Below are positions 11,459 through 40,732 of a stretch of DNA of 64,000 nt, one piece after another. The DNA is from Leptolyngbyaceae cyanobacterium (GTDB lineage Bacteria; Cyanobacteriota; Cyanobacteriia; Phormidesmidales; Phormidesmidaceae). How positions within the stretch are numbered: the stretch's first letter is position 1; every line of letters starts with the position of its first letter. The translations under genes and the position numbers were made by a program. The DNA is taken from assembly GCA_965263355.1 (NCBI GenBank), contig CBDHHL010000032.1, positions 2,304,001 to 2,368,000 of the forward strand. Reading direction: 5' to 3'. The notes beneath the pieces are model-generated. The model was given only the letters and a program-made list of their open reading frames with translations. It ran no database searches and was not told where the DNA came from.

Positions 11459-11608
11459 GGGGCCATTTCGGTAGCATCACGGCTTTCTGTGAATACTAAA
11501 CCTGTCCATGTCCAGAACGGTCATTTTTCCGTAGAAGACCTACAGGTCTCAACTTGGACATAGTTTAGGTTGTGGTGTGAAATATCCTATCTACCGGAGA
11601 CGTTACCT

Positions 11609-14600: not shown

Positions 14601-15574
14601 CGATACAACAGGAGCAAGTATTAAAAACAGCGGCTCGGTTTCGCGCTAATGTCACTAATCTGGGACGAGTGCAGACGCAAACCTATCTCAGTGCTGCTCA
14701 GACATTACATGATTGGCTGATTGCTCCCCTAGAAGCAGAACTAGAACAGCGAGGGATTGGTAACCTGGCCTTTGTGATGCCCCCTGGATTGCGATCGCTC
14801 CCCGTATCTGCCCTCCATAACGGCGAGCAATTTCTGATTGAGCGCTACAGTGTCGGTCTAATGCCCAGCGTCAGTTTAACGGATCTGAGCTATGTAGATA
14901 TACGTGACTCTGAGGTATTGGCCATGGGGGCATCTGACTTTGCTGATCAACCCAAGTTGCCAGCGGTCCCCCTTGAACTCAGCACCATTGCCAATAAACT
15001 ATGGTCTGGTGATTTCGTTATCAATGAAACCTTTACCCCCGATTCCCTGGTGGCCAGTCGGACATTAAAACCCTATGGTATTGTCCATTTGGCTACCCAT
15101 AGTGAATTTAGGGCAGGTAGTCTTGATAACTCCTACATTCAGTTTTGGGATCAACGTCTGAGCCTTGACCAGGTTCGTTCCTTGGAGCTTAACAATCCCC
15201 CGGTTGAGCTTATGGTTCTCAGTGCCTGTCGTACCGCCCTAGGCAATGAGGAAGCTGAGTTAGGCTTTGCCGGTTTTGCTGTCCAGGCGGGTGTTAAAAC
15301 TGCCATTGCCAGCCTATGGAAAGTAGACGATGTCGGCACAGCGGGCTTAATGACCCAGTTTTATACGAGTTTACAAACCGAGCCCATCAAGGCCGAAGCC
15401 CTGCGTCAGGCACAGTTAGCCATGATCAATGGCGATATTCGAGTCGAGAATGGCCAATTGCGCTGGTCCGGAGGCACACTACCGCTGCCCGATAATTTAG
15501 CCTGGGTTGACAGTAGCCTATTTTCCCATCCCTATTTCTGGGCCTCCTTTACCTCCATTGGCAGTCCTTGGTGA
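11609..15574 (+). CDS. Filamentous haemagglutinin (TPS) N-terminal domain + C-terminal CHAT caspase-like domain protein
   Basis: Signal peptide; NLFHSFEQF and LFLLNPAG (TPS domain); HLATH and VLSAC dyad; 'HPYFWASF..IGSPW' CHAT terminus. Confidence 0.9.
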   Translation: MVQSKHCALLIIGSLFIGVEDVCAQSIVPNGANTSVTNVNGDHQVTGGTASNGGQNLFHSFEQFGLTSNESATFVTQPNVVNVLGQINGGSPSIINGQLGITGSTANLFLLNPAGVVFGPDATLALPRNLSVSTADGVAFGDNILEVMGTSDYGSLVGNPTGLVFRFSTPGSIINAANLNLGVNNSLMLAGETVVSTGNISAGEVAIAAVPGEQLIRLNPDGAILGYDIAPSGDNGLLSPLSLPELLTGAGDIANSLQLDTDGTVRLVNHGLAIPDTPGTTIVNGDITASEITLLGDIVGVVDSLLAASGPDGGGAISIGGSYQGQGPLPNAKITYISADSVLNASATVNGDGGEIIVWSDQTTHALGQFLALGGPSGGNGGLIETSGRQGLTLGTTAPDVSAPAGLAGLWLIDPFNVVIGEFETSTEFSEGDVFSPIASPAELDVDLIVNALKDGNVTITTGTEGQEEGTITLISDLLYENLAGQTNTLTLEAAGSIFINASIEPLSFSNPININLLADSDNTGNGQVVIGNGGNTDFFSDIDTAGGNLTVEADSTTLTGITDPSAIILDNFTTISTFDRFGDGETGGTVFLEGIASSGKGIQLRTESALRAASDVTLIGDSNGDVGVSIEGELEISNGSLLVTGNSTNNPVGIFTSTDLQTNINNNSQIILTSDSDIQVEGLRAGGDITVTTPAFFRASGIIFNGEIDGEIPGEIDGEIPGEIDGEIPGEIDGEIPGEIDGEIPGEIEIRPLGSIISETGQVIITHGGNGLTTFDVGNDLVNGTAAAIVATSDEIQPPASFTESFIAINETISILTGEVDPTVPVVPVVPVVPTVPVVPTVPTVPTVPAGPEEELPEVGCIVDCQEIPVNPDTTSIAIDDAIIDIDSNRLLGDERAIRQIDNSYTNSYQSYLNLGNDESPTFNIPQVQTDLALVTEKTGIRPAIVYVSFVPNRDKSVTNRQLSKQQIEIGQEIQPTDVLELVVVTPEGKPILKTLPIQQEQVLKTAARFRANVTNLGRVQTQTYLSAAQTLHDWLIAPLEAELEQRGIGNLAFVMPPGLRSLPVSALHNGEQFLIERYSVGLMPSVSLTDLSYVDIRDSEVLAMGASDFADQPKLPAVPLELSTIANKLWSGDFVINETFTPDSLVASRTLKPYGIVHLATHSEFRAGSLDNSYIQFWDQRLSLDQVRSLELNNPPVELMVLSACRTALGNEEAELGFAGFAVQAGVKTAIASLWKVDDVGTAGLMTQFYTSLQTEPIKAEALRQAQLAMINGDIRVENGQLRWSGGTLPLPDNLAWVDSSLFSHPYFWASFTSIGSPW
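13727..13857 (+). repeat. In-frame 24-bp tandem repeat, 5 copies plus a partial (GEIDGEIP)
   Basis: ggagaaatagacgg(g/a)gagatacca repeated, read directly. Confidence 0.95.
14075..14158 (+). repeat. In-frame 9-bp tandem repeat, 9 copies (P-T/V-V linker)
   Basis: ccggtagtc / ccgacagtc units read directly. Confidence 0.95.
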
Positions 15575-17761: not shown

Positions 17762-18022
17762 TCAAACAGTTTCTGTTGCTACCACCGACTCTTCTGAGCT
17801 GTTCAGAGGGCGAATATTAACAATTTTGCCACCTAGCAAATTGATTCGCTGCATTTCCTCATTCATACGATGGAACGGAACTTGAATAAATTGGGTATGA
17901 CTGTGACGAATGGGAGACTGATGAGTAAACGTCACCTCATTTTCGTTTAGCCCAACCAATTCATAGACAAACATGCGGTTGTCTGAGGTAGACAACGTAC
18001 TATTGGAATATTGTCCTAACAT
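17762..18022 (-). CDS. cpcD: Phycocyanin rod-capping linker CpcD
   Basis: 'MLGQ...NRMFVYE...VPFHRMNEEMQRINLLGGKIVNIRP'; last gene of cpc operon 1. Confidence 0.92.
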   Translation of the reverse strand: MLGQYSNSTLSTSDNRMFVYELVGLNENEVTFTHQSPIRHSHTQFIQVPFHRMNEEMQRINLLGGKIVNIRPLNSSEESVVATETV

Positions 18023-18097
18023 AGTTATCACCTTTTAAAGGATACTCAGAGAGTGATGAAGCTGATTGTTTGCTATTGCTGATGTAAGGGATGAACC

Positions 18098-18136
18098 GAT
18101 CAAAAAAACATGCTATTGGCAGATGTTTTTTTGATC
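18098..18136 (-). terminator. Stem-loop between the rod linker gene and cpcD
   Basis: gatcaaaaaaacat ... atgtttttttgatc inverted repeat. Confidence 0.55.
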
Positions 18137-18170
18137 CAACCCTATTGGGGATCAGCAATGCCGATTTTTT

Positions 18171-19043
18171 TCACGCGCGGGCAATACTGGCAACCCGTCC
18201 TCCAGTTTTGTTGATACGCTGCAGAGTTTGGGATAGAGTTTCGTAAGGTACTACAAACACTCGATTGCTGCGGCGAATACTGGGATAGCCTGGGGTACTC
18301 ATACCAGCAACTTCAATTCGATATAGAGTGCCACGTTCCTGAGTTGTGTGAGGTCGTCCAAAGACACGCGTTTGAGGAGTATTTTTCGTGGAGGCTAAAT
18401 ATGTACTGACGCCACTACCAGTTCCTGAAGGGGTATTAATTACAGATGTAGTCCCCAGGGCCAATTCTGTTGCTAAGCGGGATTTATTACCCGCAAGCTG
18501 TGATCGATCGCTATTGGCATAGCCCCGATAAAGGCTAAACATTCTAGTAAACCCTGAGATACTTTGCCCTACCTCAGTATTAAAACTGCGATAGTAGGGA
18601 ACAATGTTATCTCCAAAGGCTTGTTCATACTCCTGTGTATCGATGTAGGAATCGATATCAGCATCAAATCCTTCAGTTTCGTAACGATCTAAATGCTCAA
18701 TGATCTCTGCTTCGCTATAGGGTGCCCGCCCTAACAGATGCTTGAAATTTAGTTCAATAACACGAGTTTGAAAGTTAGGATACAAAAACTTAGTCTTGTA
18801 TAGCTCAGATTTAGCCACAGCTCTAACAAACTCTCGAACGGTTAATGTCCCATTGACAAGTAGAGATTCCAAACCGACTAACCGTTCAGATTCCATTAAG
18901 TAGTCATTGCCTAAAACATGCCGATAAACGGCCTGAATGACTGCTTTTATAGTGTCTGACGAGGCATTGGGACGAAACTCTAGGGGGCCTTGCTCACTAA
19001 ACGGTGTAGTGCCTAACCAAGCAGCCGATTGGGTAATAGCCAC
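18171..19043 (-). CDS. cpcC: Phycocyanin-associated rod linker (CpcC/CpcI-like), operon 1
   Basis: 'MAIT.SA..LGT', [21 protein letters not shown] and C-terminal CpcD-like domain; GTG start with GGAG RBS. Confidence 0.92.
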
Positions 19044-19133
19044 AGATCAATCTCCTTCAAAGTACTTAACTCGGTAATCTTGATTACCTGGATTCAGATG
19101 TCTGTATGAGGTAATACTCCAAAAGTGAGAATA

Positions 19134-19952
19134 TTACGCAGATGTAATATTGATAATACGACTACCCCTTTGATTAAGTCGTTGCAATGTGGATGATAGT
19201 TGCTCGTAGGAAACTAGATACTCTTGAACACCTAGTCGAATCTGCGGGGTACGTCCACTAGCAGATTGAGAAACGCGAATGCGATAGAGCTTTTCCCGTT
19301 TGCCCCTGGTGACACCCTGTAGCTCCTTACCAAAACCGGACGCTCTAACAGGTGTGGCTGTATTAGTTGCTAATTCTGTTGTCAAACATCCTTTTTTGTT
19401 CTGGGTCCGGGCTCGATCGCTGCTAGCATATCCTCGATATAGCTGAAACATTCTGACAAAGCCTACTGTCTTCTGATTTCTCTGAGTAGCAAACCCTCGA
19501 TAATATGGAACAATTTGGTTACCAAAGGTATCGCGATATTCATCAGAATCAAAATAGCTGCTAATTTCAGCTTCGTATCCCTTCTGAATATAAAGATCTA
19601 CATGCTCAGAAATTTCTGTCTGGTCATAGGGCGCCCGACCCAGAAAATGCTTGAAATTTAGCTCGATAAAACGAACTTGGGGATTGTTACTAAAGAACTT
19701 ATGCTTGTAGAGAGTTGACATAGCCAGGGCGCGCACAAAGTCACGAACATGAATATGTCCCTGCTTTAGCAAAGATTCAGCACTGGTCAGACGTTCTGAA
19801 CGCATTATGTGATCATTGCCAAACAACTGGCGATAGGCAGCCTCAATAATGGTTTTAATATCTGTTTCAGTCGCATTCTCCCGAAGCTCAGAGGGGGTTA
19901 CTTGAGCAAATGGTTCAAATCCTAATGAACTGGCTGATGCTTCACTTATCAT
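19134..19952 (-). CDS. cpcC: Phycocyanin-associated rod linker (CpcC2/CpcH-like), operon 1
   Basis: [21 protein letters not shown]; start set at ATG 19952. Confidence 0.9.
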   Translation of the reverse strand: MISEASASSLGFEPFAQVTPSELRENATETDIKTIIEAAYRQLFGNDHIMRSERLTSAESLLKQGHIHVRDFVRALAMSTLYKHKFFSNNPQVRFIELNFKHFLGRAPYDQTEISEHVDLYIQKGYEAEISSYFDSDEYRDTFGNQIVPYYRGFATQRNQKTVGFVRMFQLYRGYASSDRARTQNKKGCLTTELATNTATPVRASGFGKELQGVTRGKREKLYRIRVSQSASGRTPQIRLGVQEYLVSYEQLSSTLQRLNQRGSRIINITSA

Positions 19953-19996
19953 AATGGTTTTCCAGAACTGTCGTTTATGAACAATGCTTTTCTTGC

Positions 19997-20034
19997 ATCC
20001 ATTGCCTGACATGTTCGTTAGTCAGGCAATGGAT
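19997..20034 (-). terminator. Perfect 14-bp stem-loop just after cpcA (partial terminator / mRNA stabiliser)
   Basis: atccattgcctgac-N10-gtcaggcaatggat, 12 nt past the cpcA stop. Confidence 0.75.
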
Positions 20035-20046
20035 AGGCCTTAACCG

Positions 20047-20535
20047 TTAACTAAGCGCGTTAATGGCATAGTCAATGTAGGAATTTGCCTCAACGGCTGC
20101 ATCTCCACTTAGACCATGGTTGGCTTTGATATGGCTGAGCGCTTCAACATACCAACTGGGAGATAGTTCGAACGCTTTGTTAATTTCTGCAGCTCCAGCA
20201 ACCAGATAATCGTCCATTGGGCCTGTACCACCTGCCACTAGACAATAGGTAACCATCCGCAGATAATAGCCAATGTCACGAGAGCACTTAGCTTTACCTT
20301 CAGGTGTGGAAGCATAGTTGTTGCCCTGCATTTGGGTAGTGTAGGGGAACTTTTGGTATACAGCCTGAGCCGCACCGTTAACTAAGCTTTCTGCATTTTT
20401 TGTAAGGGTTTGAGCAGCAGATAGGCCTGCCTGGGCCTGACGAAAACGGCCAAAAGCAACTTGCATTTCAACGCTGCTTAGAAAGCGACCCTGGGAATCA
20501 GCTGTTGCGACAGCTTCTGTCATGGGTGTTTTCAT
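20047..20535 (-). CDS. cpcA: C-phycocyanin alpha subunit, operon 1
   Basis: [18 protein letters not shown]84SRDIGYYLR; 162 aa. Confidence 0.97.
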
Positions 20536-20601
20536 GATGCTAAATCTCTCCAAAAAAAATATCTACAAAATTGACAAACGAGTTATTAACGTTGCGCAGA
20601 G

Positions 20602-21120
20602 TTAACCAACAGCACTTGCTGCCCGATCAAAGTAGCTGCTAAGTTCAGCCATCAAGGAGCTGCAATCACCTTGAGTAATACCTGCTCTGTCATTTGCGAT
20701 CGCAATTGCCGCTTCTTTCATCTTATTCACACCTTCTGCCACTGAAGCACCGGGTACGCCTAAGGCTAGATAAGTTTCACGTAAACCATTCAAACACCGA
20801 TCATCTAATACGCTGGCATCACCCGTAAATATTGCATAGGTAACATAGCGCAGAATGATTTCCATATCCCGTAAACAAGCAGCCATACGACGATGGGTAT
20901 ATGCATTACCCCCTGGTGCAATTAGTTGGGGCTGCTCCTTGAACAGTACCCGTGCTGCATTGGTAACAATGGCACTGGCGTTACCTGTTAGCCGGTTAAC
21001 CACATCCATGCGCTTACTTCCCTCTGCAACGAGTTGACTCAGCGCTTGGATTTGGGAATCGCCAATGTATTCACCTCGTGCATCGGCTTGGGCAATAACC
21101 TTTGTAAAAGCATCGAACAT
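20602..21120 (-). CDS. cpcB: C-phycocyanin beta subunit, operon 1
   Basis: [17 protein letters not shown]82LRD, GDC153; 172 aa. Confidence 0.97.
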
Positions 21121-21568
21121 GGAAAAATCTCCTACTCAAAACAAGCATATACAAGTATTAAAGAAGCTGTTGGAAAAAGCTTCAAATTTCACCAACAAGA
21201 TGTTCTAAACAAAACATATCTCAAACGAGTGAAACTAATTTCCTTCTATTTGAGAGAGGAGAGCAACGCCCTAACAAGAAAAAATTGAAGAACATCTTAA
21301 TGGAGAAAAGCATCAAAATACATCTCCCTCAAAGCTTATAAACTTTATCGGAAATAAATCCTTGTTGTACAAGGTTTTAGAAACTGTTGGAAGGCAGCCT
21401 AAATACTTGCTAAAAGGCATGGAGTTAGTGACGCTCCTAATCTTACTTGCCGATTAAGTCTAATGCGCTGTTAGCAAATGTTACTTTGCTAACAACCTTT
21501 GAGGGAAGAGAGCCCTGACCTCAATCAAGGCTCTGACTTTTGAACCAAGTTGATTTAATCAATTTGAT

Positions 21569-21586
21569 TGTGCAAGCACTGTGCAT
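21569..21586 (-). promoter_or_regulatory. L-box (RcaC binding site) upstream of cpcB operon 1
   Basis: Minus strand ATGCACA-GTGC-TTGCACA versus consensus TTGCACA-N4-TTGCACA. Confidence 0.8.
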
Positions 21587-21668
21587 GGCTTTGTATCTGA
21601 ATGCTTACAATTCTCTAAATGCCTGTGAAATATACCTTAGAGAGACTGGTAGCAGGATTTGCACAAGC

Positions 21669-22451
21669 TTATGAATGTTTACATTCTGTTGCATCCTTCT
21701 CAGTCATAGTCGCATCTCCACAATCAAACAGCATGGTACGCAGATATCGATCGGCCCATTCAGCGCCAAAGGCACACTCTAGGATTCGTCTGGTTTTATC
21801 ATTTTTTTGTTGCTGTAGGCAATAGCGACGTTGACCAGCCATAATCAGTGCCTCTTGTTCCATAGAATCAACAGGACTGGTCTGTTTACTTAATTGACAA
21901 TGAATTGACAAAAATTGACTTGCTTGAGTTAGAAATAACATTTCTTCCTGCTCGTTTGTAGGGCTAACAAACAAACAAAAATCAGAAAAAATATCGCCCC
22001 AATCGGGTAACTTTCGTGGTTGGGTAAACTGGTTCCTTGGCAACTGTTTCAAAGCCTGATAATAATTGGCAGGTAAGCTTTGAACAGCGGAAACAGGGGA
22101 TAAATCAACAATTGCAGCACTAATCTTTCCTCGGCCTGCTACAATATCAACGCCAAAAATTGGTAAGGGATAATTAGTCCGTGGGAACATGACGCAGTGA
22201 AGAATATCCAAATGTTGTCCCACTTTGGCTAGCTCTAAATGAACTTTACGAAACTGCACCGTTTGATAACAGTGGTTTTCAATGGTTAGTCTCTCACCTT
22301 CAAGCGTCCCTTCGATATAGCCTAAGTCCTTGGGCGTCTGATAAGGATAAAGTACAAACTGACTTTGCCAGATTGATTCAAGGGTTTTGGCTAGTTGAGA
22401 GATTAAAGGGTGCTGATATTGACACAGAGAGCTGTAACGAACTTGATTCAT
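21669..22451 (-). CDS. pcyA: Phycocyanobilin:ferredoxin oxidoreductase
   Basis: FRKVHLE, LDILHCVMFP, PIFGVD, LPDWGDIFS, NDKTRRILE; start may be 22451 or 22487. Confidence 0.95.
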   Translation of the reverse strand: MNQVRYSSLCQYQHPLISQLAKTLESIWQSQFVLYPYQTPKDLGYIEGTLEGERLTIENHCYQTVQFRKVHLELAKVGQHLDILHCVMFPRTNYPLPIFGVDIVAGRGKISAAIVDLSPVSAVQSLPANYYQALKQLPRNQFTQPRKLPDWGDIFSDFCLFVSPTNEQEEMLFLTQASQFLSIHCQLSKQTSPVDSMEQEALIMAGQRRYCLQQQKNDKTRRILECAFGAEWADRYLRTMLFDCGDATMTEKDATECKHS

Positions 22452-22614
22452 GATTATAGGTAAGTCATTGTGAAGTCTTGATGGCAATGGTTGCCGCCCT
22501 TTGTTCGATCACCTCCCAAATATGGTGCATTGTTTAACTGGTTGATCACATTTGGAAGTTGAAAAACCTGTGGGTTGAGTATTGCAAAGGTATACCCTTA
22601 CCATGCCGTACCAC

Positions 22615-22632
22615 TGTGCAAACTCTGTGCAC
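22615..22632 (-). promoter_or_regulatory. L-box (RcaC binding site) upstream of pcyA
   Basis: Minus strand GTGCACA-GAGT-TTGCACA; pcyA is a known L-box target in Fremyella diplosiphon. Confidence 0.8.
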
Positions 22633-22670
22633 ATTTAAGGCTGTATTGACAAATATCTGGTGTGTAGGGG

Positions 22671-24587
22671 CTATTCTAAGGCAAAAATCGCATTTTCTTG
22701 GTTACACCAGGCGTGATAACGCTTTAACCGATTCAGGATACGGAATACTAGATTCTGTCCCTGGGTTAATTTAGTAATGTAGTCATCTGCGCCAACAGCA
22801 AATGCTTTAGATTGACTATCTTGATCCCCATGGACGCTTAAAAAAATAATAGGTATATGCTGCCATTCAGGATGACTACGGATCACTTTACAAAGTTCAA
22901 ATCCATTGATACCAGGCATTTCAATATCTAGAATAATAACATCGGGTATTATTTGGTTAAATATTGTCCAAAAGCGCTGTGAATTCGCTAAAGGAGTAAT
23001 TTGAAAATGCCAGGGCTGCAGCAATTTCATCACCTGTTGTAGGTAATGACTATCGTCATCGACCAACATGATTTTGCTGTGACGGTATCTAAGGTATGTT
23101 GCCTGATCGATAGCTTCTAACACTTCTGCAGGACTAACTGGATATTCCAGGACCATAGCAGCCCCTCGACGAGTCAAATCCAGGCGATTGCTAAAATCTG
23201 CTTGGGGGGTGATCAAGATCATCGGCAGCTGAGGCCAATGGCTATTCAATTTGGTAATCAATTGCAGCAGCAGCTGTGAATTAGCTTCAGCCAATACAAG
23301 ATCGCTGTCGCTACCAACAAGGTTGATGAGCACCAGGTCTGGGAGGTCTGCAGCTACATCCAGGGAGTTTTGTTGGAAGTCATTTAAACCTAGTGCTTGG
23401 GCTGCCATCTCATTAGAGGTAGCGATCTCTAGGCACAGACCTTGGGCCACGGCCAACGCCATTAGCTGCTGAATATACGGAGCTTCATTCGTATCGATGA
23501 TGAGAATTTTAGGCAAATGGGGGGTGGTTTCTGACCAAGACACTAACTGAGGTGGATTGTCTAATGTATGGCCTAAGGTGGTCACCAGGGTCTGGAATTG
23601 TTTTGTTTGTGTAGAGGATAGGGTCACTGTTTCCAGGAGCTGCTCTATCTGTACAGCTAAACGATGTCCCTCAAGCAATCCAAAAATTCCTAAGGTGCCT
23701 GCCAAACTATGGGCCATTTGTTTGGCCTGCATCCGCTGCTGCTCATTTATGTCCTGTTCTCTGAGGGTTTGTGACAGATGTGCTAGGTAACGCCAACGTT
23801 TTACGCTTTCATCTTTATGGGTTTGCCAAGTTTGAGTTAGTCCCTGTAAATACTGAGCCTGACGTTCAGGCGAAATTGTTTGAGATAGTTTTTGATTGTG
23901 CAGGGACGTTAGTGGGGATGCACCTAGGCGATAGCCTAACCCCCGTACAGTTTCAATCACCTCAGCCGAAATGCCCGCAGCCTTGAGTTTTTGGCGTAGT
24001 CCCCGAATATGCGATCGCACAGTCGCTTCACTGGGAAATTCATCTGAAGACCAGATCTGATCTAGCAGGACAGATGTGCTAAAAACCTGATGGCTATGGC
24101 GTAAGAAAAATTCAAGCAGGGCGTACTCTTTGGCCGTTAGCGTTACAGGATACCCTTGGTAGGTAACGTTACAGCTGACTGGATCCAGACATAGATCCCC
24201 CCAACCCAAAACAGGTTGCGGTTCGGCAGCCATACGCCGTACCAATACTTGAATACGCGCTAGCAGTTCTTTGATATCAAAAGGCTTTACTAAATAATCG
24301 TCTGCACCGGCCTCTAGACCTTGGATTTTGTCAACCTGTTGATGTCTAGACGACAACAGCAAAATGGGCACACCATAGCCTTCACTGCGCAACCGCTGAC
24401 AGAGTTGCAGACCATTAAGGTGAGGCAGTACCCAATCCAAGAGAATCAGGTCATAGCTAAAGGTAGACGCATAGGACCAACCCATTTCGCCATCAGCTAC
24501 CCGATCAACAATATAATTCTGTATTGTTAACTGCTGAATGAGGACTTCAGCGAGGGCATTATCATCGTCTACTAATAAGATTTTCAT
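22671..24587 (-). CDS. rcaC: RcaC-type response regulator (REC - OmpR wHTH - HPt - pseudo-REC - REC)
   Basis: N-terminal REC (LILLDW), wHTH (TVRSHIRGLRQKL..VRGLGY), HPt (AHSLAG), C-terminal REC (IILDIEMP); gene order rcaE-F-C. Confidence 0.88.
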   Translation of the reverse strand: MKILLVDDDNALAEVLIQQLTIQNYIVDRVADGEMGWSYASTFSYDLILLDWVLPHLNGLQLCQRLRSEGYGVPILLLSSRHQQVDKIQGLEAGADDYLVKPFDIKELLARIQVLVRRMAAEPQPVLGWGDLCLDPVSCNVTYQGYPVTLTAKEYALLEFFLRHSHQVFSTSVLLDQIWSSDEFPSEATVRSHIRGLRQKLKAAGISAEVIETVRGLGYRLGASPLTSLHNQKLSQTISPERQAQYLQGLTQTWQTHKDESVKRWRYLAHLSQTLREQDINEQQRMQAKQMAHSLAGTLGIFGLLEGHRLAVQIEQLLETVTLSSTQTKQFQTLVTTLGHTLDNPPQLVSWSETTPHLPKILIIDTNEAPYIQQLMALAVAQGLCLEIATSNEMAAQALGLNDFQQNSLDVAADLPDLVLINLVGSDSDLVLAEANSQLLLQLITKLNSHWPQLPMILITPQADFSNRLDLTRRGAAMVLEYPVSPAEVLEAIDQATYLRYRHSKIMLVDDDSHYLQQVMKLLQPWHFQITPLANSQRFWTIFNQIIPDVIILDIEMPGINGFELCKVIRSHPEWQHIPIIFLSVHGDQDSQSKAFAVGADDYITKLTQGQNLVFRILNRLKRYHAWCNQENAIFALE

Positions 24588-24595
24588 TGTTTAAT

Positions 24596-24976
24596 CTAGA
24601 GTCTCCATCCTATTAGCTTGGCTATTTGACTGGCTAAGGATAAGGGGTCAAAGGGTTTAGTAATGACCCCAGTCACCCCAATCTTTTGAAACAGACGTTT
24701 TTCTGCTGTTCCAGTTTTAGCCGTCAACAAAATAACTGGAATATTTTTAGTCTGAAGATTACTATGTAAACTCTCAAAAGTACTAATACCATCTACCTCA
24801 GGCATCATGACATCAAGTAAGATGGCATCTGGTTGGCGTGTTTCAGCCAGATGCAGCCCTTCTTGCCCTGAAGATGCACAAATGATTTGCCAGTTAGCTT
24901 CCATCTTTAAACTGAGCCTAACCACCTTCTGAATAGGCTCCTCATCGTCAATCACCAGTATCAGTTTGGATGTCAT
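24596..24976 (-). CDS. rcaF: Single-domain response regulator RcaF
   Basis: REC domain only (IDDE, LLDVMMP, TKPF); ATGA overlap with the rcaE stop. Confidence 0.85.
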   Translation of the reverse strand: MTSKLILVIDDEEPIQKVVRLSLKMEANWQIICASSGQEGLHLAETRQPDAILLDVMMPEVDGISTFESLHSNLQTKNIPVILLTAKTGTAEKRLFQKIGVTGVITKPFDPLSLASQIAKLIGWRL

Positions 24977-27213
24977 GGTGTTTTGCATATCTGATCGTAG
25001 ACCTGCTGATGGGAAAGAGGGACCGTAAAATAAAAGCTACTACCTGCACCTACTTGACTTTCGGCCCAAATTTTGCCGCCATGTTGTTCTATAATTTTAC
25101 GACAGATAGTTAAGCCTAGACCTGTTCCTCCCTTCTTCCGAGAATCAGAAGAATCAACCTGCTGAAATCGTTCAAATATACTATCTAATTTATCGGTCGG
25201 AATGCCCTGTCCATTATCCTTCACACAGAAAAGTGCGGCTTCTGAAGAACAAGATTTAAGATACCCATTAGACAATTGCTTTGCAGTAGAGTATAGCTGC
25301 AAACTTAAAATGATTGTGTTACCAGGAACTGAAAATTTAATCGCGTTACCAATTAAATTGGTTAAGGTTTGCACAATGTAGTCTGGATCAGCCCAAATCG
25401 AAATCGGTTCCAGACGGGTATGTATTTTGATACCGTTTTGCTGGGCCATGGTCTGCATTGCTTCAGCCGCTTGTTCTACCAAATCTGCTGCTTTACAAGT
25501 ACAGTTGTCCATGGTAACTTCACCGGACTCTATCCGCTGCAGATCCAGTACATTGTTGACTAAACGGACAAGTCTATCGGTACTCTCATCGGCAACTGCC
25601 AACATTTGTTGACCTTCTTCTGATAGGTGTCCCAAACGCCCCGTGGCAATCAGCTTTAATGAGCCATGCAGTGAGGTTAGCGGGGTTCTTAATTCATGGC
25701 TGACAACAGCAATAAATTCATCTTTCATGCGTTCGATGGCTTTGCGATCGCTAATGTCTGTTGTCAGTGCAAAAAAGCCATTTATTTTTGCCTGTCCTTT
25801 TTTAATCAGTTCCAGATGAGGAATATAGCTGACACTAACGGAACGGATACGTCCATCTTTGAAAATGAGTTCACTCTCGTAGGTGACTTGATCGCCTCTT
25901 AAAGCTGCTTCAATATAAGGGTAGATCGTCTGATAGTAGTCAGGGTCTTTAAAAGCCTTGATGGGGTTACCATAAAGGGCTGCTGGATCTTGACCCAGCC
26001 AGTAGTCATAGGCCTGATTGTTAAATCGATAACATTGTTGGGCATCGACATAGGCAATAAGAACTGGCAAATTATTTGTAATCAAACGTACTTGCTCTTC
26101 ACTTTGTCGCAATGCTATTTCAATCTGCTTTCGTTCTTGAATTTCTTGTTGTAGGCTTCTATTAGCTGTAGTTAATTCTGCTGTGCGCAACTTTACCCGT
26201 TTTTCTAAATATTCCAGCATCTGGCTTTGGGAAAGCGCAATGCTAATCTGAACAGCTAATTGCTGCATTAAATCTAATTCAAATTCTGTCCATTTCCGTG
26301 GGCTTTTACATTGGTGCGCAATCAGCAAACCCCAGAGATGATGTCTGTTGGATGCATCGGGTGATGATTGTTCCGGTGCTAATGGATGCACGATCGGAAC
26401 AATAAGCTTAGATTGAATCTCCCACTGTTCAACAAATTCAATTAAGCACTCAGCTATTCCAGCGTCAGGGGCATGAACATCTGTAATGGCGTGCACACGA
26501 CCTTTTGCATAGAGCTGCTGATACTCTTCTGGAAACACCTCTTCAGGAAAGTCCATGCCTAAAACGGCTGGATAGGGTGCCTTAACAGCCTCACTCGTTG
26601 CCTTGCCGGTGCCATCTGGTAAAACTCTGTAGATTAATACTCGATCGGCATTTAGTAGGTTTTGGACCTCCTCAACGGTGGTTTGCAAGATTTCTTTGAG
26701 CTGTAGGGACTGACGGATTTTGAGGGTAATTTCTGCAAAGATTTGAGCGCGTTGATGCTGGCGCTTGGTCACCACCTCAGTATTTTGATTATTAGAGGCT
26801 ATTAACAGACGCTTGTGAGAAATGACTCCCTCTAAACTACCCTGCCCATCCAACACGGGAAGATAGCCAATCTGATGGCGCTCAAACTGCTCCAGTAGCG
26901 ATGCAACCGTAGATAATTCAGAGTTTGCTGCCGTTATCACAGGCCGTGTCATTACCTTCGATAATCGTAATTTGGCCCAGTCAGTTCTTTGAGCAATGAT
27001 TTTTAGGACATCGTGTCGAGTAACAATGCCAACGACCTGGCCACGACGCAACACAACAATGCAGCCGATTTCAGGATGAGCCGTAAATTTCGCTAAAGCT
27101 CTGGGCAGCAGAGTTTGACTGGAGGCAGTCAATGGCTGAACATTAATTACCTCTTTCCAGGGAGAAAGTTCGCGTACGCCAAGCACCATCAGCGATAAAC
27201 TAAATTGCGCCAC
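24973..27213 (-). CDS. rcaE: RcaE-type green/red cyanobacteriochrome histidine kinase (CBS pair - GAF - PAS - HisKA - HATPase)
   Basis: GAF 'DFPEEVFPEEYQQLY..GRV..I.DVH...IAECLIEF...SKLIVP' keeps the chromophore Cys and the Glu/Leu/Lys protochromic residues; SHELRTPL H-box; GTGLGL. Confidence 0.9.
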   Translation of the reverse strand: MAQFSLSLMVLGVRELSPWKEVINVQPLTASSQTLLPRALAKFTAHPEIGCIVVLRRGQVVGIVTRHDVLKIIAQRTDWAKLRLSKVMTRPVITAANSELSTVASLLEQFERHQIGYLPVLDGQGSLEGVISHKRLLIASNNQNTEVVTKRQHQRAQIFAEITLKIRQSLQLKEILQTTVEEVQNLLNADRVLIYRVLPDGTGKATSEAVKAPYPAVLGMDFPEEVFPEEYQQLYAKGRVHAITDVHAPDAGIAECLIEFVEQWEIQSKLIVPIVHPLAPEQSSPDASNRHHLWGLLIAHQCKSPRKWTEFELDLMQQLAVQISIALSQSQMLEYLEKRVKLRTAELTTANRSLQQEIQERKQIEIALRQSEEQVRLITNNLPVLIAYVDAQQCYRFNNQAYDYWLGQDPAALYGNPIKAFKDPDYYQTIYPYIEAALRGDQVTYESELIFKDGRIRSVSVSYIPHLELIKKGQAKINGFFALTTDISDRKAIERMKDEFIAVVSHELRTPLTSLHGSLKLIATGRLGHLSEEGQQMLAVADESTDRLVRLVNNVLDLQRIESGEVTMDNCTCKAADLVEQAAEAMQTMAQQNGIKIHTRLEPISIWADPDYIVQTLTNLIGNAIKFSVPGNTIILSLQLYSTAKQLSNGYLKSCSSEAALFCVKDNGQGIPTDKLDSIFERFQQVDSSDSRKKGGTGLGLTICRKIIEQHGGKIWAESQVGAGSSFYFTVPLSHQQVYDQICKTP

Positions 27214-27306
27214 TAATAATCTATTAGGTATTTGGCAGAATCGTTACTAAATTGTTTACATTCTTTAAGTTTTAAGAAATTATTCAAAGCATCACCATAA
27301 AAAAAT

Positions 27307-27344
27307 ATTGCTGGTAAGAAAGTAATCACTTCCCTGCCAGCAAT
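27307..27344 (-). terminator. Imperfect stem-loop between operon 2 and rcaE
   Basis: attgctgg ... ccagcaat arms followed on the minus strand by a T-run. Confidence 0.5.
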
Positions 27345-27431
27345 GTTCTGCTTGACGCAAGCCTAAATCTTGTCCCTATCCAGAGCTGATTTTTCTCTGT
27401 AAGAGACTATAAATTCTAACGGTAGTGTCGT

Positions 27432-28301
27432 TTAGAGTTCTATTATGCTTGCAATTTTTCCCCCCTGGCGTTGCACCCGTTGCATATGGGGCGTTAACTC
27501 CTCATAGGGAATGATGACCGCTTTGTTTACTCGCCGGACTTTGGGGTAGCCTGGGCCACTGATCGCGGCAACTTCAACCCGGAAAAGCCGACCAGACCCA
27601 AAGGCCTTTGAACCCCCAAAGGCACTGACAGAGGCATCTCCTTTAAGCGCTGGTCTAAACGCATTATTGTTGGTGCTACCCAAGGGGGGCTTCACTACCG
27701 AGGCTGTGTTCCGAGCAAGATCTTTGACAAGCTGAGGGGCATTCCCGGTAAATTGGGCTTTGTCGCTGCTGGCATAGCCACGATAGAGCTGGAAGAGACG
27801 GGGAAACCCGACGGAGCGCTGTCCTATCCCTGTCGTCACCAGATCACGGTAATAGGGGACAACATTTTCTCCAAAGTAGGTTTGATACTCGACTGAGTCA
27901 ATGTAAGTATCAATATCCGCCTCAAAGCCTTTAGACTCATAAAAATCTAAGTGTTCTACAATTTCACCTTGATCATAGGGAGCCCGACCCAGGAGATGTT
28001 TAAAGTTCAGCTCGATTGTCCGACTTTGGAAGGTGTTGTAGAAAAACTTTTGCTTGTACAAGTCTGACTTAGCGACTTGTCGTACAAATTCCTGTACGGT
28101 GATTTTGCGATCGCGTAGCAACGATTCAGCAATCACAAGCCGATCAGATGACAGCAGGTGGGGGTTACCGAGTACCTGCTGATACACGGCCAGAATAATC
28201 ACTTCAACGTCTTGCGATGTAGCATTAGGTCGCAGTTCTAATAGAGCCGCATCACTAAACGCAGAGGTACCTAGACGAGAGGCTGCTGTTGTAATAGCCA
28301 T
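27432..28301 (-). CDS. cpcC: Phycocyanin-associated rod linker (CpcC/CpcI-like), operon 2
   Basis: [27 protein letters not shown], '[16 protein letters not shown]'. Confidence 0.93.
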
Positions 28302-28327
28302 TAGAAATTTTCCTTTATTTCACAGAA

Positions 28328-29143
28328 CTAGACAGCAGTCACACTAAGCACCCTATTACCAGAACGATTTAGCTGTTGTAGCTTATTCGTCAGCTGGTCA
28401 TAGGAAACCAGTACCTCTGTAACACTTTGTCTGACGACAGTAGCATTAGGGGATGCCGCCCGGACAACTCGAAGTTGGTAGACATCACCACGAGCGCCCC
28501 CTAATGGTCCAGATAGAGCCACACGCTTGGATACACTCAGCGGAGCCGGTAAATTTTTAGCCACGGCCACTGTCAATCGAGGTTGTTTTTGGCCCTGGGC
28601 GCGATCGCTGTTGGCATAGCCACCATAAAGCTCTAACAAACGACTAAAGCCAACTGTCCGTTGACCAGGATGATCGGTTTGAAAGTCTCTGTGGTAGGGA
28701 ACAATATTATCCCCAAAACTATTTTCATATTCTACAGAGCTGATGTAAGAGTCAATCTCCGCTTCGTATCCCTTGGTCAGGAAGAGATCTAAATGGTAGG
28801 CAATTTCACTTTGATCATAGGGAGCCCGACCCAGCAGATGCTTGTAGTTCAGCTCAATAAAGCGAACATGGAAGTTGGGATATAAAAACTTTTGGCGGTA
28901 GAGGTCTGACTCTGCAATTGCGCGAACAAAGTCTCGGACTGAAATAATGCCCTGGGCCAAAAGTGACTCAGGTTCTTCCAATCTATCATTCTCCATGAGA
29001 TGCTCATTGCCGAGCACCTGCCGATAGGCTGCCGAAATAACCGCTTGGACATCATCTCGGAGCCAATTGGGTCTCAATTCAACAGGATCAGCCTCATCAA
29101 AGGGTTTAATTCCCAATCTTCCGGCTTCTTGCAAACCAGCCAT
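28328..29143 (-). CDS. cpcC: Phycocyanin-associated rod linker (CpcH-like), operon 2
   Basis: 'A.RLGIKPF...VELRPN', [19 protein letters not shown]. Confidence 0.9.
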
Positions 29144-29378
29144 AGTTTTTTACCTAACGTCACTACTTAATAAACAAGCCTTTCCATGGATTTTTAACGT
29201 TATGATTTACAAAGTTATCCGAAATGCAAAAAAGCAACATTGCTGATTCTCAAACGTCTCTAATCTGTAAATTTTGCCAAAAAGCGTTTATTTCAGATTG
29301 ATTTGCTCTAAAAACCAGCAATGATAGCAGCACCGTCCCACTTTTTAACCCTTATCCATGGCCGGACAGTAATCGCCC

Positions 29379-29864
29379 TTAAAGCGCGTTGATGATGTAA
29401 TCAATGTAGGAATTGATCTCAAGTCCGGGGTCACCCGTTAAACCATGATTTTCCTTGATATACTTAAGGGCCTCAGCATACCAACTTGGAACTAATTCAA
29501 AGCTACTGTGCATTTCCGCTAAACCTGCTAATAGATAGTCATCAGCTGGACCAGTCCCCCCTGCAATCAGGCAGTATTGAATAATCCGCACATAGTAACC
29601 AATGTCACGCAGGCACTTAGCTTGACCACGGGCATCAAAGGCATAGTTACTGCCCTGCATAGTTTTCGTATAAGGAAATGCCTGATAAACTGCGTTGGCA
29701 GCTCCTTCGGTCAGTTGGTCTGCCTTGATGCTGAGTTCTCTGGCTGCCTCTAGATCAGCCGTTGCCAGACGTAAACGACCAAAGGCAATTTGAAGTTCAA
29801 CATTACCTAGGTAGCGACCTTGGGAGTCAGCAGCTACAACGGCTTCAGTTAATTGTGTTTTCAT
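29379..29864 (-). CDS. cpcA: Divergent phycocyanin alpha subunit, operon 2
   Basis: KC84LRDIGYY, GGTGP and PSWY conserved, with many atypical substitutions. Confidence 0.9.
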
Positions 29865-29986
29865 TGGGATAGTTCTTTACTCGTGTTTTAGTAAGGATGG
29901 TTTGGGAAAGCATTGTTGAGAGCAAGTGGCTTAGAGGGATAACTTGCTCAGCGATGGCTGGAAATTGTTGTCCAGGGTTAACTCAA

Positions 29987-30505
29987 TTAGCTCACGGCGG
30001 CAGCAGCGCGATCAAAGTAGCCAGCCACTTCAGCCATCAGGGCACTGCAATCACCCGGTTGAATATTGTTGGGGTCGCTTGCGATCGCAATTGCAGCATC
30101 CTTCATCTTAAGGATACTAGTCGCCATTGAAGAGCTAGGAACTCCCAAAGCCAAATAGGTCTCACGCAGACCATTCAAACAGCGATCATCTAGGACACTA
30201 GCATCGCCTAGAAACACAGCATACGTGACATAGCGAAGAATAATATCCATATCGCGTAAACAGGCCGAAACTCGACGATTCGTATAAGCATTACCGCCAG
30301 GAGCAATTAATTGGGGTTGCTCTTCAAATAATGCCCGTGCAGCATTGGTGACGATTGCAGAAGCATTGCCTGTAATTCGATTCACAACATCAGTACGCTT
30401 TGCCCCATCCTTAACGACAGCCAATAGAGCATTAATTTGATCAGTACCCACTAACTGGCCCCGATTATCAGCCTGCGAAACAACCTTCGTAAAGGCATCT
30501 AACAT
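29987..30505 (-). CDS. cpcB: Divergent phycocyanin beta subunit, operon 2
   Basis: PGGN72AY, C82 and C153 conserved; 172 aa. Confidence 0.93.
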
Positions 30506-30820
30506 TGATCTAATCTCCTAATTTCTTCTTTTCGATTGAGTTAGATGGTGCAATCTGACTTAGTCAATGCCAACTAACGTCTGTCTGAACAGCCTGAAAA
30601 GCTCGCCATCCAAAACCTATTCGCCTTACACAGTTATCTCAGTGCAGAGGACGTGGGCAAAACCATAAGTTTCCTCAACGGTAACTGATGATATGTATTG
30701 GCTTTGTCGACGACAGACTAGTAACCTCAAGAATTACATGGATTTTAATCACTTTTTTCTAAGCATTAAAGTCCCTAATTCCTTCGGTCAAATCCTAGTA
30801 ATTTATTAGAGCAGTCAAAT

Positions 30821-30838
30821 TGTGCAGAATCTGTGCAG
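30821..30838 (-). promoter_or_regulatory. Variant L-box upstream of cpcB operon 2
   Basis: Minus strand CTGCACA-GATT-CTGCACA, a perfect direct repeat with 11-bp period. Confidence 0.7.
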
Positions 30839-31265
30839 AATCCAGGAAAGAATATGCAACATATACCTAAACAAGCATCTTGAAAGGTTACAAGGCTATT
30901 TTTTAGGATACGTATAACAGATTAGCTTCTAGAAAACATGCATTAAGGAAGCAACATTTTTATAGAGTGTAACTCTGGTAAAACGCCCTTTCCAAAAGGA
31001 GTTTGCAGATTGATTCATTTTATTGATCACATATTTAATGATTAAAAAAACAATGAGGTTTATATAGTTAAAATTGGTTGATTTAGCTTTGCCAAATTGG
31101 CATGCTTTCAATTATTTTGGTGACAAAGACCTGACAAGTTGAGATTAAGGTCTGTAACATTTTGTTCGTTTGAGGAAGATTGCAATTTGCTTTACCTCTT
31201 ATAATTCAATATAGGTATTGCATTTTCTTCCTTTGAAAACATAAGAGTGAAGGCTTACAACAAAT

Positions 31266-32072
31266 ATGACGATTCCACTATTAGCGTATTCTCCCTCTTG
31301 TCCTAATCAGCGTGTTGATGCCCTGGGTGCTCCAGATGATGAAGCAATCATCTATTCAACCGATGATTTGTTTTCGCCGACAGAGATGGGGGCTCTTATT
31401 GATGCAGCCTATCGACAAATTTTCTTTTACGCGTTTAGGTGGGACCGTGAGATTGCTCTAGAATCTCAGTTGCGTAACAGACAGATCACGGTACGTGATT
31501 TCATTCGAGGATTGCTGTTGTCAAATACCTTTATTGATAGTTTTTACAGTAAGAACAGTAACTACCGCTTTGTTAAGCATTGCGTCGAGAGAGTTTTAGG
31601 GCGTCAAGTTTATAGTAAAGCAGAGCAAATTGCTTGGTCGGCAGTGGTTATGAGCAAAGGGCTCCAGGGCTTTATTGATGAGTTGCTCAATAGTGATGAA
31701 TATATTGAAAGCTTCGGTGAAAATGTTGTACCTTATCATCGCCGTCGAACGTTGCCTAGTCGTTCTGTAGGAGAAATTCCCTTTAATATTGCGTCTCCTC
31801 GCTACGATGCCTATCATCGCGACCAGTTAGGATTCCCTCAACCGATTTGGCAAGAAGCTGTTCGCACCTTCCGTTCCTATGAGCAAAAACCCAAGGTTGG
31901 GGATCCCACTTTGTTTCTTAATATGGCAAAGGCACTGGTTCCTCAAACGCGTAACCCAAATACTGTTTCCATTGAGAGTATTGATATCAATTCTACTGTT
32001 CCCTATCGTGACATTGATAGGGGAACATCCTTAAAGTGGGGCAAGCCATCAGCATCCGCCTCAATCAAATGA
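31266..32072 (+). CDS. cpcG: Rod-core linker CpcG
   Basis: [30 protein letters not shown]; hydrophilic C-terminus with GDP..FL.MA and VPYR (no CpcL hydrophobic tail). Confidence 0.92.
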
Positions 32073-32583
32073 CTGGGTGATGAGCTGGGACCCTAGTGCA
32101 TTGTGTCAGCGCTAACAATTCGGGTTGGTTACGGATAGGGTAAAGAGTGACTCTTCATCCCTGTAGGCTCTTTACCAGTCTTACCTGAAATCTTAGTAGG
32201 CTTGACAAACCTCTAGGAGCTTGGCCTGGGTTCCCAGCTTGTCATATCCCACGATCGACTAGCACTATGTTTTTGCAGGGGTTTACCTGGCTTAAAGCGC
32301 TACAAGAAAGCCTGAAGCCCTTGAAAGTATGTGCTGCAAATTGCTATCCCCTATTACCGAAGCTTGGTACCTTATATTAATAAGGTGCTAAGCAGTTGCC
32401 TGGGAATTTCTGGTAACAGCATAAATAGAACAATTTCAAGAGTTGATAAAAGATTGTGCATCCTTTACGGATATTTGCAACCCTTGATGATCCTGTGAAC
32501 AGCTAATTTTGGGCTGATTGACATACTATAATTAGCGGGGTTCAATACCGCATTGTGACAGAATTTCGTTTTTAGTAGGAGGT

Positions 32584-34241: not shown

Positions 34242-34426
34242 GAAATCTGAAAAGGGCAAATGCTGAAACCTTGAGTTCCTGAGTTCCTAGCTAGCTGTAA
34301 GACGGTTTGTCCATAGACGCTGTGCTACAGGTGCATGGACGAAATCAACCATCCTACGCAATTTAGTCTGGAAAAATAGCGGCATAATTTGAAGAGATCC
34401 CAGTGATTGGCTGCTAGGTGCTTCCC

Positions 34427-34788
34427 ATGACTGACGTTTTTATCTCTTACTCCCGCAAAGATAAAGCTTTTGTACAGGTACTACATCAAGCACTGACTCA
34501 GAGTAAATATGATGCCTGGGTGGATTGGCAGGATATACCCCTCACTGCTGACTGGTGGGAAGAAATTAAGTCAGGCATTGAAGCGGCGGATACCTTCGTG
34601 TGTGTAATTAGCCCAGACTCGATGGCAATACCCTAATCGCACTGGGGCAAAACGGAGTAGTCAGACAACTACCAATTAAAATTGAATCCTTAAATGATCT
34701 GCTACAGCGGGGATGCAACTGGCTGCAAGATTATTTAGCTCACAGCAATCTTGCTACGGATAAACAACGGTTGCTGTGTGAGCAATAA
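34427..34788 (+). pseudogene. Internally deleted TIR...WD40 gene
   Basis: TIR start 'DVFISYSRKD...W.EEI..GIE.AD.FV.VISPDS' abuts, in another frame from 34621, 'DGNTLIALGQNGVV...LNDLLQRGCNWLQDYL', the typical C-tail of cyanobacterial WD40 proteins. Confidence 0.8.
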
Positions 34789-40529: not shown

Positions 40530-40732
40530 GGGCAGGTTAGAGCAGGGCAAAGCTTAAATAGTACAACATGCCAGTTAAGGCCCTGAAAGCGCTATTCGGC
40601 GTATTAGCGGCGCAATCTTAATAAAATCTAGAAATTTTTTAGTAAAGTCTGACTTCGAAACTTCAGTCAGCATAATGACAAAGAGGGTTTATACCTTCTT
40701 TTGTGTCCACTATTTCTGCCCTAAGACAGCCA

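Follow-up and report, generated by a model that had tools for sequence, protein, structure and literature searches.

The window, a 64,000-nt stretch of DNA from a Leptolyngbyaceae cyanobacterium, carries at 17762-32072 a block in which an ordinary switch for type III chromatic acclimation (CA3) is combined with a five-gene cassette consisting of cpcB*, cpcA*, two rod linker genes and cpcG*. We suggest, with a probability of roughly 0.6, that the cassette encodes a third, divergent phycocyanin that is induced by RcaC in red light and forms extra rods docked on CpcG*. In the usual picture of CA3, one inducible phycocyanin is swapped against phycoerythrin, and a conserved third phycocyanin would widen that picture. 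Together with its matched linkers and rod-core linker, it occurs in about 5% of the sampled cyanobacterial genomes, in most of them apparently wired to the same regulator. As far as checked, the cassette is a new form of CA3, more notable for its occurrence across the family than for the gene order seen here. No description of it was found in a full-text literature search, which did not cover several key papers on chromatic acclimation, and the accessible part of a survey of 65 genomes (PMC9415938) does not mention it.

The positions of the open reading frames (ORFs) confirm the gene order of the initial annotation: cpcG on the plus strand, then on the minus strand cpcB-A-linkers (operon 1, which belongs to the cassette), rcaE-rcaF-rcaC, pcyA, and cpcB-A-linkers-cpcD (operon 2). 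The gene family labels were checked against NCBIfam, Pfam and PDB, and they hold. One 11,462-base contig of run X1, possibly the source sample, corresponds to 20849-32310 with zero differences; because this single contig spans it, the stretch from cpcB2 to cpcG was not joined artificially during assembly. Runs X4 and X5 contain relatives only.

A divergent phycocyanin clade

The two operons encode two different phycocyanins, as originally proposed. CpcA* (gene at 29379-29864, minus strand) and CpcB* (29987-30505, minus strand) are 65% and 73% identical to their operon 2 counterparts, and 65% and 74% identical to a constitutive pair of the relative G001. CpcB* scores 287.2 bits, above the TIGR01339 cut-off of 279.3, and CpcA* scores 237.9 bits, below the TIGR01338 cut-off of 269.45; the nearest solved structures to both are ordinary phycocyanins. 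In a class-wide sample, CpcB*A*-type proteins are present in 21 of 401 genomes at 80-90% identity, followed by a gap and a next value of 74%. Within the family of G001, 17 of 172 genomes have them. The 24 such pairs form one clade in a tree of CpcB plus CpcA (68 pairs and an outgroup; quick search, no bootstrap), with a Shimodaira-Hasegawa-like approximate likelihood ratio support of 100 and a stem of 0.16. Pairs were assigned to the clade by how closely they match the window protein, which makes the lists of signature residues partly circular; this does not affect the identity gap or the linker trees.

By source names, the clade includes Calothrix sp. 336/3, Xenococcus sp. PCC 7305, Leptolyngbya sp. 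'hensonii', Alkalinema, Microseira wollei, Chamaesiphon and Phormidesmis priestleyi Ana. Each of the 16 named carriers checked has the full set of ten alpha signature residues. The set is complete in 83 of 119 scored homologs, with nine present in seven more, and by source names these homologs span Nostocales, Pleurocapsales and filamentous orders. Between CpcB*A* and its relatives, nonsynonymous divergence is 0.07-0.12 and synonymous divergence is above 1.3 or saturated in five of five comparisons; CpcB*A* is under strong purifying selection. The breadth of the conserved clade and this selection led us to reject decay of operon 1, an idea prompted by its absence from L001, L004 and L005. Recent foreign origin was likewise set aside: overall GC and third-position GC match those of the neighbours, and cpcG* and both linkers cluster with close kin. 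The nearest rows in the tree are housekeeping-type cpcB-A-C-C-D-E-F operons, and CpcB*A* likely arose by duplication from such an operon. In these comparisons operon 1 is no simple duplicate and belongs to a separate phycocyanin clade.

The residues alphaCys84, betaCys82, betaCys153 and betaAsn72 and the counter-ion Asp residues are kept in 24 of 24 clade pairs, the window pair included. Changes fixed relative to the 44 other pairs include P4Q, S21N, Q33L, S/G37D, T96Q, M107A, I112L, I118M, N119H and V148L in alpha, and Y18L, 35A, M38T, M79V, A80S, V127M and G130S in beta. According to PMC6614406, the beta-153 bilin is contacted by betaAsn35, betaThr149, betaAsp39, alphaPhe28, alphaGln33 and alphaAsp145, and its colour is linked to ring twist; betaAsn35 is also tied to hexamer stability in PMC8556327. 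At these positions the window has beta35 Ala, beta149 Gln and alpha33 Leu, and it keeps betaAsp39, alphaPhe28 and alphaAsp145. A spectral shift is possible because several beta-153 contacts are replaced, and we place a measurable shift of CpcB*A*, in either direction, just short of even odds. The remaining fixed changes presumably lie in the pockets of the alpha-84 and beta-82 bilins and where subunits meet. Three observations limit what can be read into these replacements. Asn occupies beta35 in only 20 of the 44 other pairs, Gln occupies beta149 in only 16 of the 24 clade members, and alphaGln33Leu and three more alpha changes are common to sister housekeeping-type operons (a comparison that leaves out the beta row of L214).

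That sister group (L214, L217-L220 and L153; P0094-P0119), which by source names includes Cyanothece PCC 7425 and Neosynechococcus, shares alpha Gln4, Asn21, Leu33 and Asp37.

L-box-type repeats and promoters

The pattern TGCACA-N(4-6)-TGCACA has three exact matches in the 64 kb, each of them on the minus strand and with a spacer of 5 nt: upstream of operon 2 (21569-21585), of pcyA (22615-22631, conserved in kin) and of the cassette operon (30821-30837). The initial annotation had described these three repeats in one orientation, and the count stands far above the shuffled-sequence expectation (mean 0.08; none of 100 shuffles reaches three). When one mismatch is allowed, the sole extra match is the pcyA box read in reverse. 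The two cpc operons and pcyA are thus each preceded by this box, oriented as for activation. An extended -10-like element follows in operon 2 (TGATTAAAT, 21553-21561, minus strand) and in the cassette (TGCTCTAAT, 30805-30813, minus strand). Upstream of cpcB*, in the window and in distant genomes, the box is separated by a 7-nt gap from an extended -10 element of the form TG-n-T(C/T)TAAT, a geometry that would be expected of an activator bound at the -35 position. The same holds for ordinary inducible operons: 13 cpcB2A2 operons were found in 20 further regions, and all 13 have a box with at most one mismatch and then a TG-n-TTAA(A/T)T-like element. Within the long cpcB2 leader, two strong hairpins are present at 21470-21536.

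Between operon 1 and rcaE, a terminator-like hairpin with a run of T is predicted at 27299-27344 (minus strand). The fold is conserved in the close relative G439, and a simple generic scan for promoters and terminators missed it. The cassette transcript likely ends at this hairpin, and the conserved fold disfavours feedback by read-through from the cassette into rcaE. That generic scan gave counts at chance level (25 against 30.1 and 11 against 13.3) and was not used.

The promoter region of cpcG* (31139-31205, plus strand) is different. It has no box in the orientation of cpcG*; a separate conserved element, TCTGTAAC(A/G)TTTT (31139-31163), precedes TATAAT (31200-31205) and resembles HLR1, the site of RpaB. 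In 14 of 21 upstream regions of cpcG*, TCTGTAA is followed about 40 nt later by a TATAAT-like hexamer, whether or not an L-box is present, and 25 bases around the element are identical between the window and G439. According to PMC11633204, RpaB activates antenna genes in low light, and HLR1 has two (G/T)TTACA(T/A)(T/A) halves with 2 nt between them and lies 50-100 nt before the start. The match to this consensus is partial, one half agreeing at 7/8 positions and the other at about half, at roughly 40 nt from TATAAT. Control of cpcG* by the reversed box, as repression or activation, was not adopted, as the box-to-gene distance varies between 145 and 428 nt and cpcG* has its own element; a candidate NtcA site was dropped because its TAC half is not conserved. 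Downstream of cpcG*, at 32137-32175, lies a short repeated element where many contigs of runs X1 and X2 have loose ends.

Box and RcaE across carrier genomes

With an RcaE-level GAF hit defined as E <= 1e-64, 14 of the 21 carriers have both the box and RcaE, one has the box alone, six have neither and none has RcaE alone. The association has a Fisher p of 1.3e-4, or 1.3e-3 after merging the near-identical G194, G234 and G308, with kinship not otherwise corrected. RcaE is found in 14/21 carriers versus 59/380 other genomes. The box is direct in ten carriers (at most one mismatch), degenerate with the element in register in two, located before an upstream operon that the cassette follows in three, and missing in six.

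Several findings weaken a strict coupling of cassette and switch. The two degenerate boxes counted as present have two mismatches (G026) and three mismatches (G296), and three others were counted through the upstream operon. In G322 the boxes are perfect and there is no RcaE-level hit. The TGCACA repeats were called by an assumed L-box consensus, as in the initial annotation. Because 6/21 cassettes have no box, the cassette is not in itself a part of chromatic acclimation.

Six of the seven RcaE-negative carriers, with all candidates scored, keep rcaF-rcaC beside a box-led cpcB2A2. These loci, L158-L163 (G234, G194, G308, G322, G260 and G170), have no rcaE, and RcaC is shortened to 500 aa in G322. 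In the same genome a perfect reversed box lies about 770 nt upstream of a constitutive-type cpcBA (L199:1501).

Cassette linkers and CpcG*

In FastTree phylogenies, CpcG* (31266-32072, plus strand), linker 1a (28328-29143, minus strand) and linker 1b (27432-28301, minus strand) each fall in a clade of their own, with supports of 100, 99 and 100. Both linkers follow cpcB*A* in 20 of the 21 carrier genomes, and cpcG* is adjacent in 20, placed divergently upstream in 16 and last in the operon in four; it is missing in one. The C-terminal hydropathy of CpcG* is 0.25, with a clade maximum of 0.84 compared to 2.16-2.66 for CpcL-type proteins. Linkers of this clade lie outside the CpcL clade and have no hydrophobic C-terminal helix of the CpcL kind, so CpcG* is a cassette-specific rod-core linker without a membrane helix. 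The idea of a dedicated CpcG therefore holds for the existence of a separate paralog tied to operon 1; it does not extend to control, as cpcG* has its own RpaB-like promoter element instead of an L-box. Likewise, the linkers have their own clades but are not strictly dedicated. In four close kin (G001, G002, G003 and G075), cpcG*, the box and the linkers stand upstream of rcaE, and the locus has no cpcB*A*. No cpcB*A* remnant was found between box and linker in these four, and a whole-genome check of G001-G003 found no cpcB*A* elsewhere. The linkers and CpcG* can thus serve other phycocyanins.

In G016 and G295, the next gene after the cassette is for a cpcE-like lyase (52-54%; L143:6618-7478, L147:6670-7518).

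The ordinary CA3 circuit

The other half of the block is a known arrangement. The rcaE gene (24973-27213, minus strand) encodes two N-terminal CBS domains followed by GAF, PAS, HisKA and HATPase domains, and is followed by rcaF (24596-24988, minus strand), a single receiver domain identified by PF00072 and position, and rcaC (22671-24587, minus strand), a response regulator with receiver, winged helix, Hpt and receiver domains in which Asp51 and the Hpt His are present. This GAF-PAS-histidine kinase order, with rcaF and rcaC behind it, is that of an RcaE-type sensor. The best PDB matches of the GAF domain are 8k9o (E 1.6e-73) and 7ckv, annotated 'RcaE'. A Cys-Leu motif is present as AECL at 254-257, and an upstream Glu and a downstream Lys align with solved RcaE; we take these to have the roles of the triad residues. 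Cys-Leu at the bilin site is the rule for GAF domains of the RcaE/CcaS type, according to PMC9415938. The window protein is thus a putative green/red photosensor. Judged by length, relatives of about 730-780 aa likewise have the two CBS domains, and other RcaE proteins are about 600-650 aa long.

The pcyA gene (21669-22487, minus strand; NF002760 over cut-off), for phycocyanobilin:ferredoxin oxidoreductase, separates rcaC from operon 2. In this operon, all on the minus strand, cpcB2 (20602-21120; TIGR01339) and cpcA2 (20047-20535; TIGR01338 over cut-off) encode the ordinary inducible phycocyanin and cluster with box-led operons of kin. Downstream are rod linkers 2a (19134-20012) and 2b (18171-19043), both with PF00427 and PF01383 and named CpcH2-like and CpcI2-like from the gene order, and the rod-capping linker gene cpcD (17762-18031; NF058509 over cut-off). 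In the linker tree, which also includes linker 2a, linker 2b forms its own clade with those of other rcaEFC-linked operons.

An RcaE-anchored survey returned 79 loci, of which 23 passed the display filter; wherever cpc genes flank one of these 23 loci, the arrangement comprises rcaE-rcaF-rcaC, pcyA and a cpcBA-linker-linker-cpcD operon behind a box. In G160 and G219 a reversed box lies upstream of a cpeC-like linker gene, and the repressed cpeC promoter carries a reversed box. PMC5737509 and PMC4752607 describe how phosphorylated RcaC, acting through the L-box, activates phycocyanin and pcyA genes and represses phycoerythrin genes. We conclude that rcaE-rcaF-rcaC with box-pcyA and box-cpcB2A2-linker-linker-cpcD is the usual CA3 circuit.

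Relatives and acclimation type

The initial annotation treated the acclimation type as not assignable and could not confirm that the arrangement was undescribed; both points are revised here. Among the 15 + 31 window proteins scanned there is no match to phycoerythrin or lyase families. G439 matches the window DNA at 83% identity across 12.5 kb, with an unchanged gene order and each of the three boxes, one of which has a mismatch; it also has a constitutive boxless cpcBA-cpcE next to a peb-type gene, several copies of cpeBA and three cpcB in all. Both cpeBA and constitutive cpcBA are present in G439, G001 and G003. Because G439 shares the layout and has these genes, the window organism is likely a CA3 strain with three phycocyanins, two of them red-induced. 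Contigs resembling cpeBA (about 85% alike to G001) in runs X1-X3 come from mixed samples and are only a hint. The architecture is not unique either. Operon 2 with rcaEFC and pcyA is the common CA3 cluster, and operon 1 belongs to the widespread five-gene cassette; the full layout recurs in G439, Phormidesmis-like genomes have the cassette in tandem behind operon 2, and G136 and G390 have no cassette at this locus.

Eight of the 21 carriers have no CpeB-level hit. Three of these, G005, G019 and G295, have the whole rcaEFC, operon 2 and the cassette, and a peb-type query gave no intact hit above the PcyA level in them, which incomplete assemblies could explain in some cases. G005 has broken cpe and peb-like remnants: a fused, broken cpeB/cpeA remnant (L097, G005:C68) with a stop-containing peb-like remnant nearby, and an intact rcaEFC. 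RcaE without phycoerythrin departs from the 65-genome survey of PMC9415938, in which all 27 RcaE carriers can make phycoerythrobilin. PMC8941735 reports P. priestleyi without phycoerythrin and one unexplained case of rcaE without it.

Two close kin, G439 (L234:19070-19901 plus L235:108-1817) and G075 (L167:12617-15268), but not the window, have a second apcE after cpcD of the box-led operon. Its product has three linker domains in about 885 aa and stands at about 71-75% to other ApcE; this may place a core-membrane linker under RcaC. In G003, a perfect box lies upstream of a divergent apcA-like (36%) and apcB-like (63%) pair (L290:516-1517), which may be a low-light allophycocyanin controlled by RcaC; further copies of this 17-mer occur in that genome.

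A model for the cassette and its alternatives

Based on these observations, we suggest the following model. In red light RcaE would phosphorylate RcaF and RcaC, as established for Fremyella; the domains and key residues are present in the window. RcaC would then bind the three repeats just upstream of the -10 elements, where sites and spacing are observed, and activate pcyA, cpcB2A2-linkers-cpcD and cpcB*A*-linkers. We consider red induction of cpcB*A* through RcaC in the window organism probable. The cassette transcript would terminate at the predicted hairpin before rcaE. Expression of cpcG* would likely depend on its own RpaB-type promoter, such that docking sites track light intensity and pigment tracks light colour. 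With its three bilin cysteines kept, CpcB*A* would likely prefer to pair with itself through the fixed interface and pocket changes, and its absorption may be shifted. The odds of a separate rod class on CpcG* appear balanced. In green light, to judge from kin, the rods would return to constitutive phycocyanin and phycoerythrin as in other CA3 strains. A broader reading, in which CpcB*A* is a spectrally tuned family with its own CpcG* rod class, giving one green/red sensor two red-light rod types, and in which the phycoerythrin-free rcaEFC carriers G005, G019 and G295 perform phycocyanin-only acclimation outside CA1-CA7, is doubtful as a whole.

A red-induced cassette could also act by dosage. 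CpcB*A* would then be functionally equal to CpcB2A2, subunits would mix, and the gain would be rod mass, linkers and a second CpcG. The loss of cpcB*A* in four close kin that kept the remainder fits such a role, as do G225 and L077, where cpcB2A2 is lost and cpcB*A* is placed under the operon 2 box (G225 has only two cpcB plus one cpeB). Mixing in vitro of phycocyanin monomers from different strains, described in PMC13022049, points to mixed hexamers and speaks against strictly separate rods. Set against this are the alpha signature conserved across orders and the genomes that retain cpcB*A* next to two other cpcBA pairs, and we regard equivalence of the two phycocyanins as unlikely. Shade rather than colour might be the main cue, with RpaB driving an antenna extension in low light and the L-box a secondary input in some lineages. 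The HLR1-like cpcG* element is present with and without the box, boxless cassettes have TTACA/TGTAA repeats upstream of cpcB*, and the 6/21 carriers without a box also lack RcaE. The perfect cassette box with its extended -10 in register in the window and G439, and the lack of any RcaE-bearing carrier without a box among the 21, make this explanation improbable.

Two further alternatives have very little in their favour. The cassette is a complete set of rod parts that includes a CpcG-family linker. In this it resembles the CpcL-rod modules described in PMC9415938, and it could encode a CpcL-type rod feeding photosystem I; the hydropathy and tree position of CpcG* make this very improbable. 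Finally, the divergent phycocyanin could be a sulfur-sparing form or a decaying duplicate. The third cpcBA pair of Fremyella, cpc3, encodes a sulfur-sparing phycocyanin, and the cassette likewise adds a third cpcBA pair, accompanied by linkers, to a genome of the CA3 type; CpcA* also falls below its family cut-off. The cassette is not depleted in Met and Cys, however, with 13 in the window pair (8 Met and 5 Cys) and 12-17 per clade pair against a minimum of 5 among other pairs, it has an L-box-type promoter unlike cpc3, and it is under strong purifying selection. This alternative is scarcely credible. The preferred reading, a red-induced third phycocyanin on additional rods, would make the cassette a natural experiment on the tuning of phycocyanin by fixed pocket changes and on the sorting of paralogous rods. 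By source names, the cultured carriers Calothrix sp. 336/3, Xenococcus sp. PCC 7305, Leptolyngbya sp. 'hensonii' and Alkalinema sp. FACHB-956 make it directly testable.

Comparison with known systems

The closest known system is CA3 of Fremyella diplosiphon (RcaE-RcaF-RcaC, L-box, cpcB2A2H2I2D2, pcyA). The window shares its sensor, relay and regulator and the boxes at pcyA and at an inducible cpcBA-linker-linker-cpcD, and close kin of the window share cpeBA and a boxless constitutive cpcBA-EF. Unlike Fremyella, the window has another operon led by a box, which encodes a divergent phycocyanin and linkers of separate clades and is linked to a CpcG paralog; the RcaE of the window has the two N-terminal CBS domains, and all parts are clustered. 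The CpcL-rod modules of chromatic acclimation types 1 and 7 (CcaS-CcaR, G-box) are also special-rod kits linked to a photosensor and provided with a CpcG-family linker, but here CpcG* has no membrane helix, the sensor is of the RcaE type and the operon contains phycocyanin genes. The paralogous allophycocyanins of far-red light photoacclimation (FaRLiP) and low-light photoacclimation (LoLiP) are similar as phycobiliprotein paralogs specific to a light regime with altered bilin pockets; the window paralog is instead a rod phycocyanin with all three Cys kept and a possible spectral shift. Housekeeping cpcG/cpcB-A-C-C-D-E-F operons (L214, L218, L219, G017, G059 and G294) have linkers of the same types and share part of the alpha signature at the N-terminus; some of them also have this divergent cpcG. 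The cassette differs from them in having no cpcD, no adjacent cpcE in 19/21 loci, and further fixed substitutions.

Neighbouring genes

Outside the block, the window contains a short TIR-domain ORF (34418-34636) and a NACHT-type WD40 protein (40703-43900), both possibly fragmented. At 11570-15574 it encodes a secreted TPS-domain/CHAT protein with tandem EIDGEIPG and VPTV repeats.

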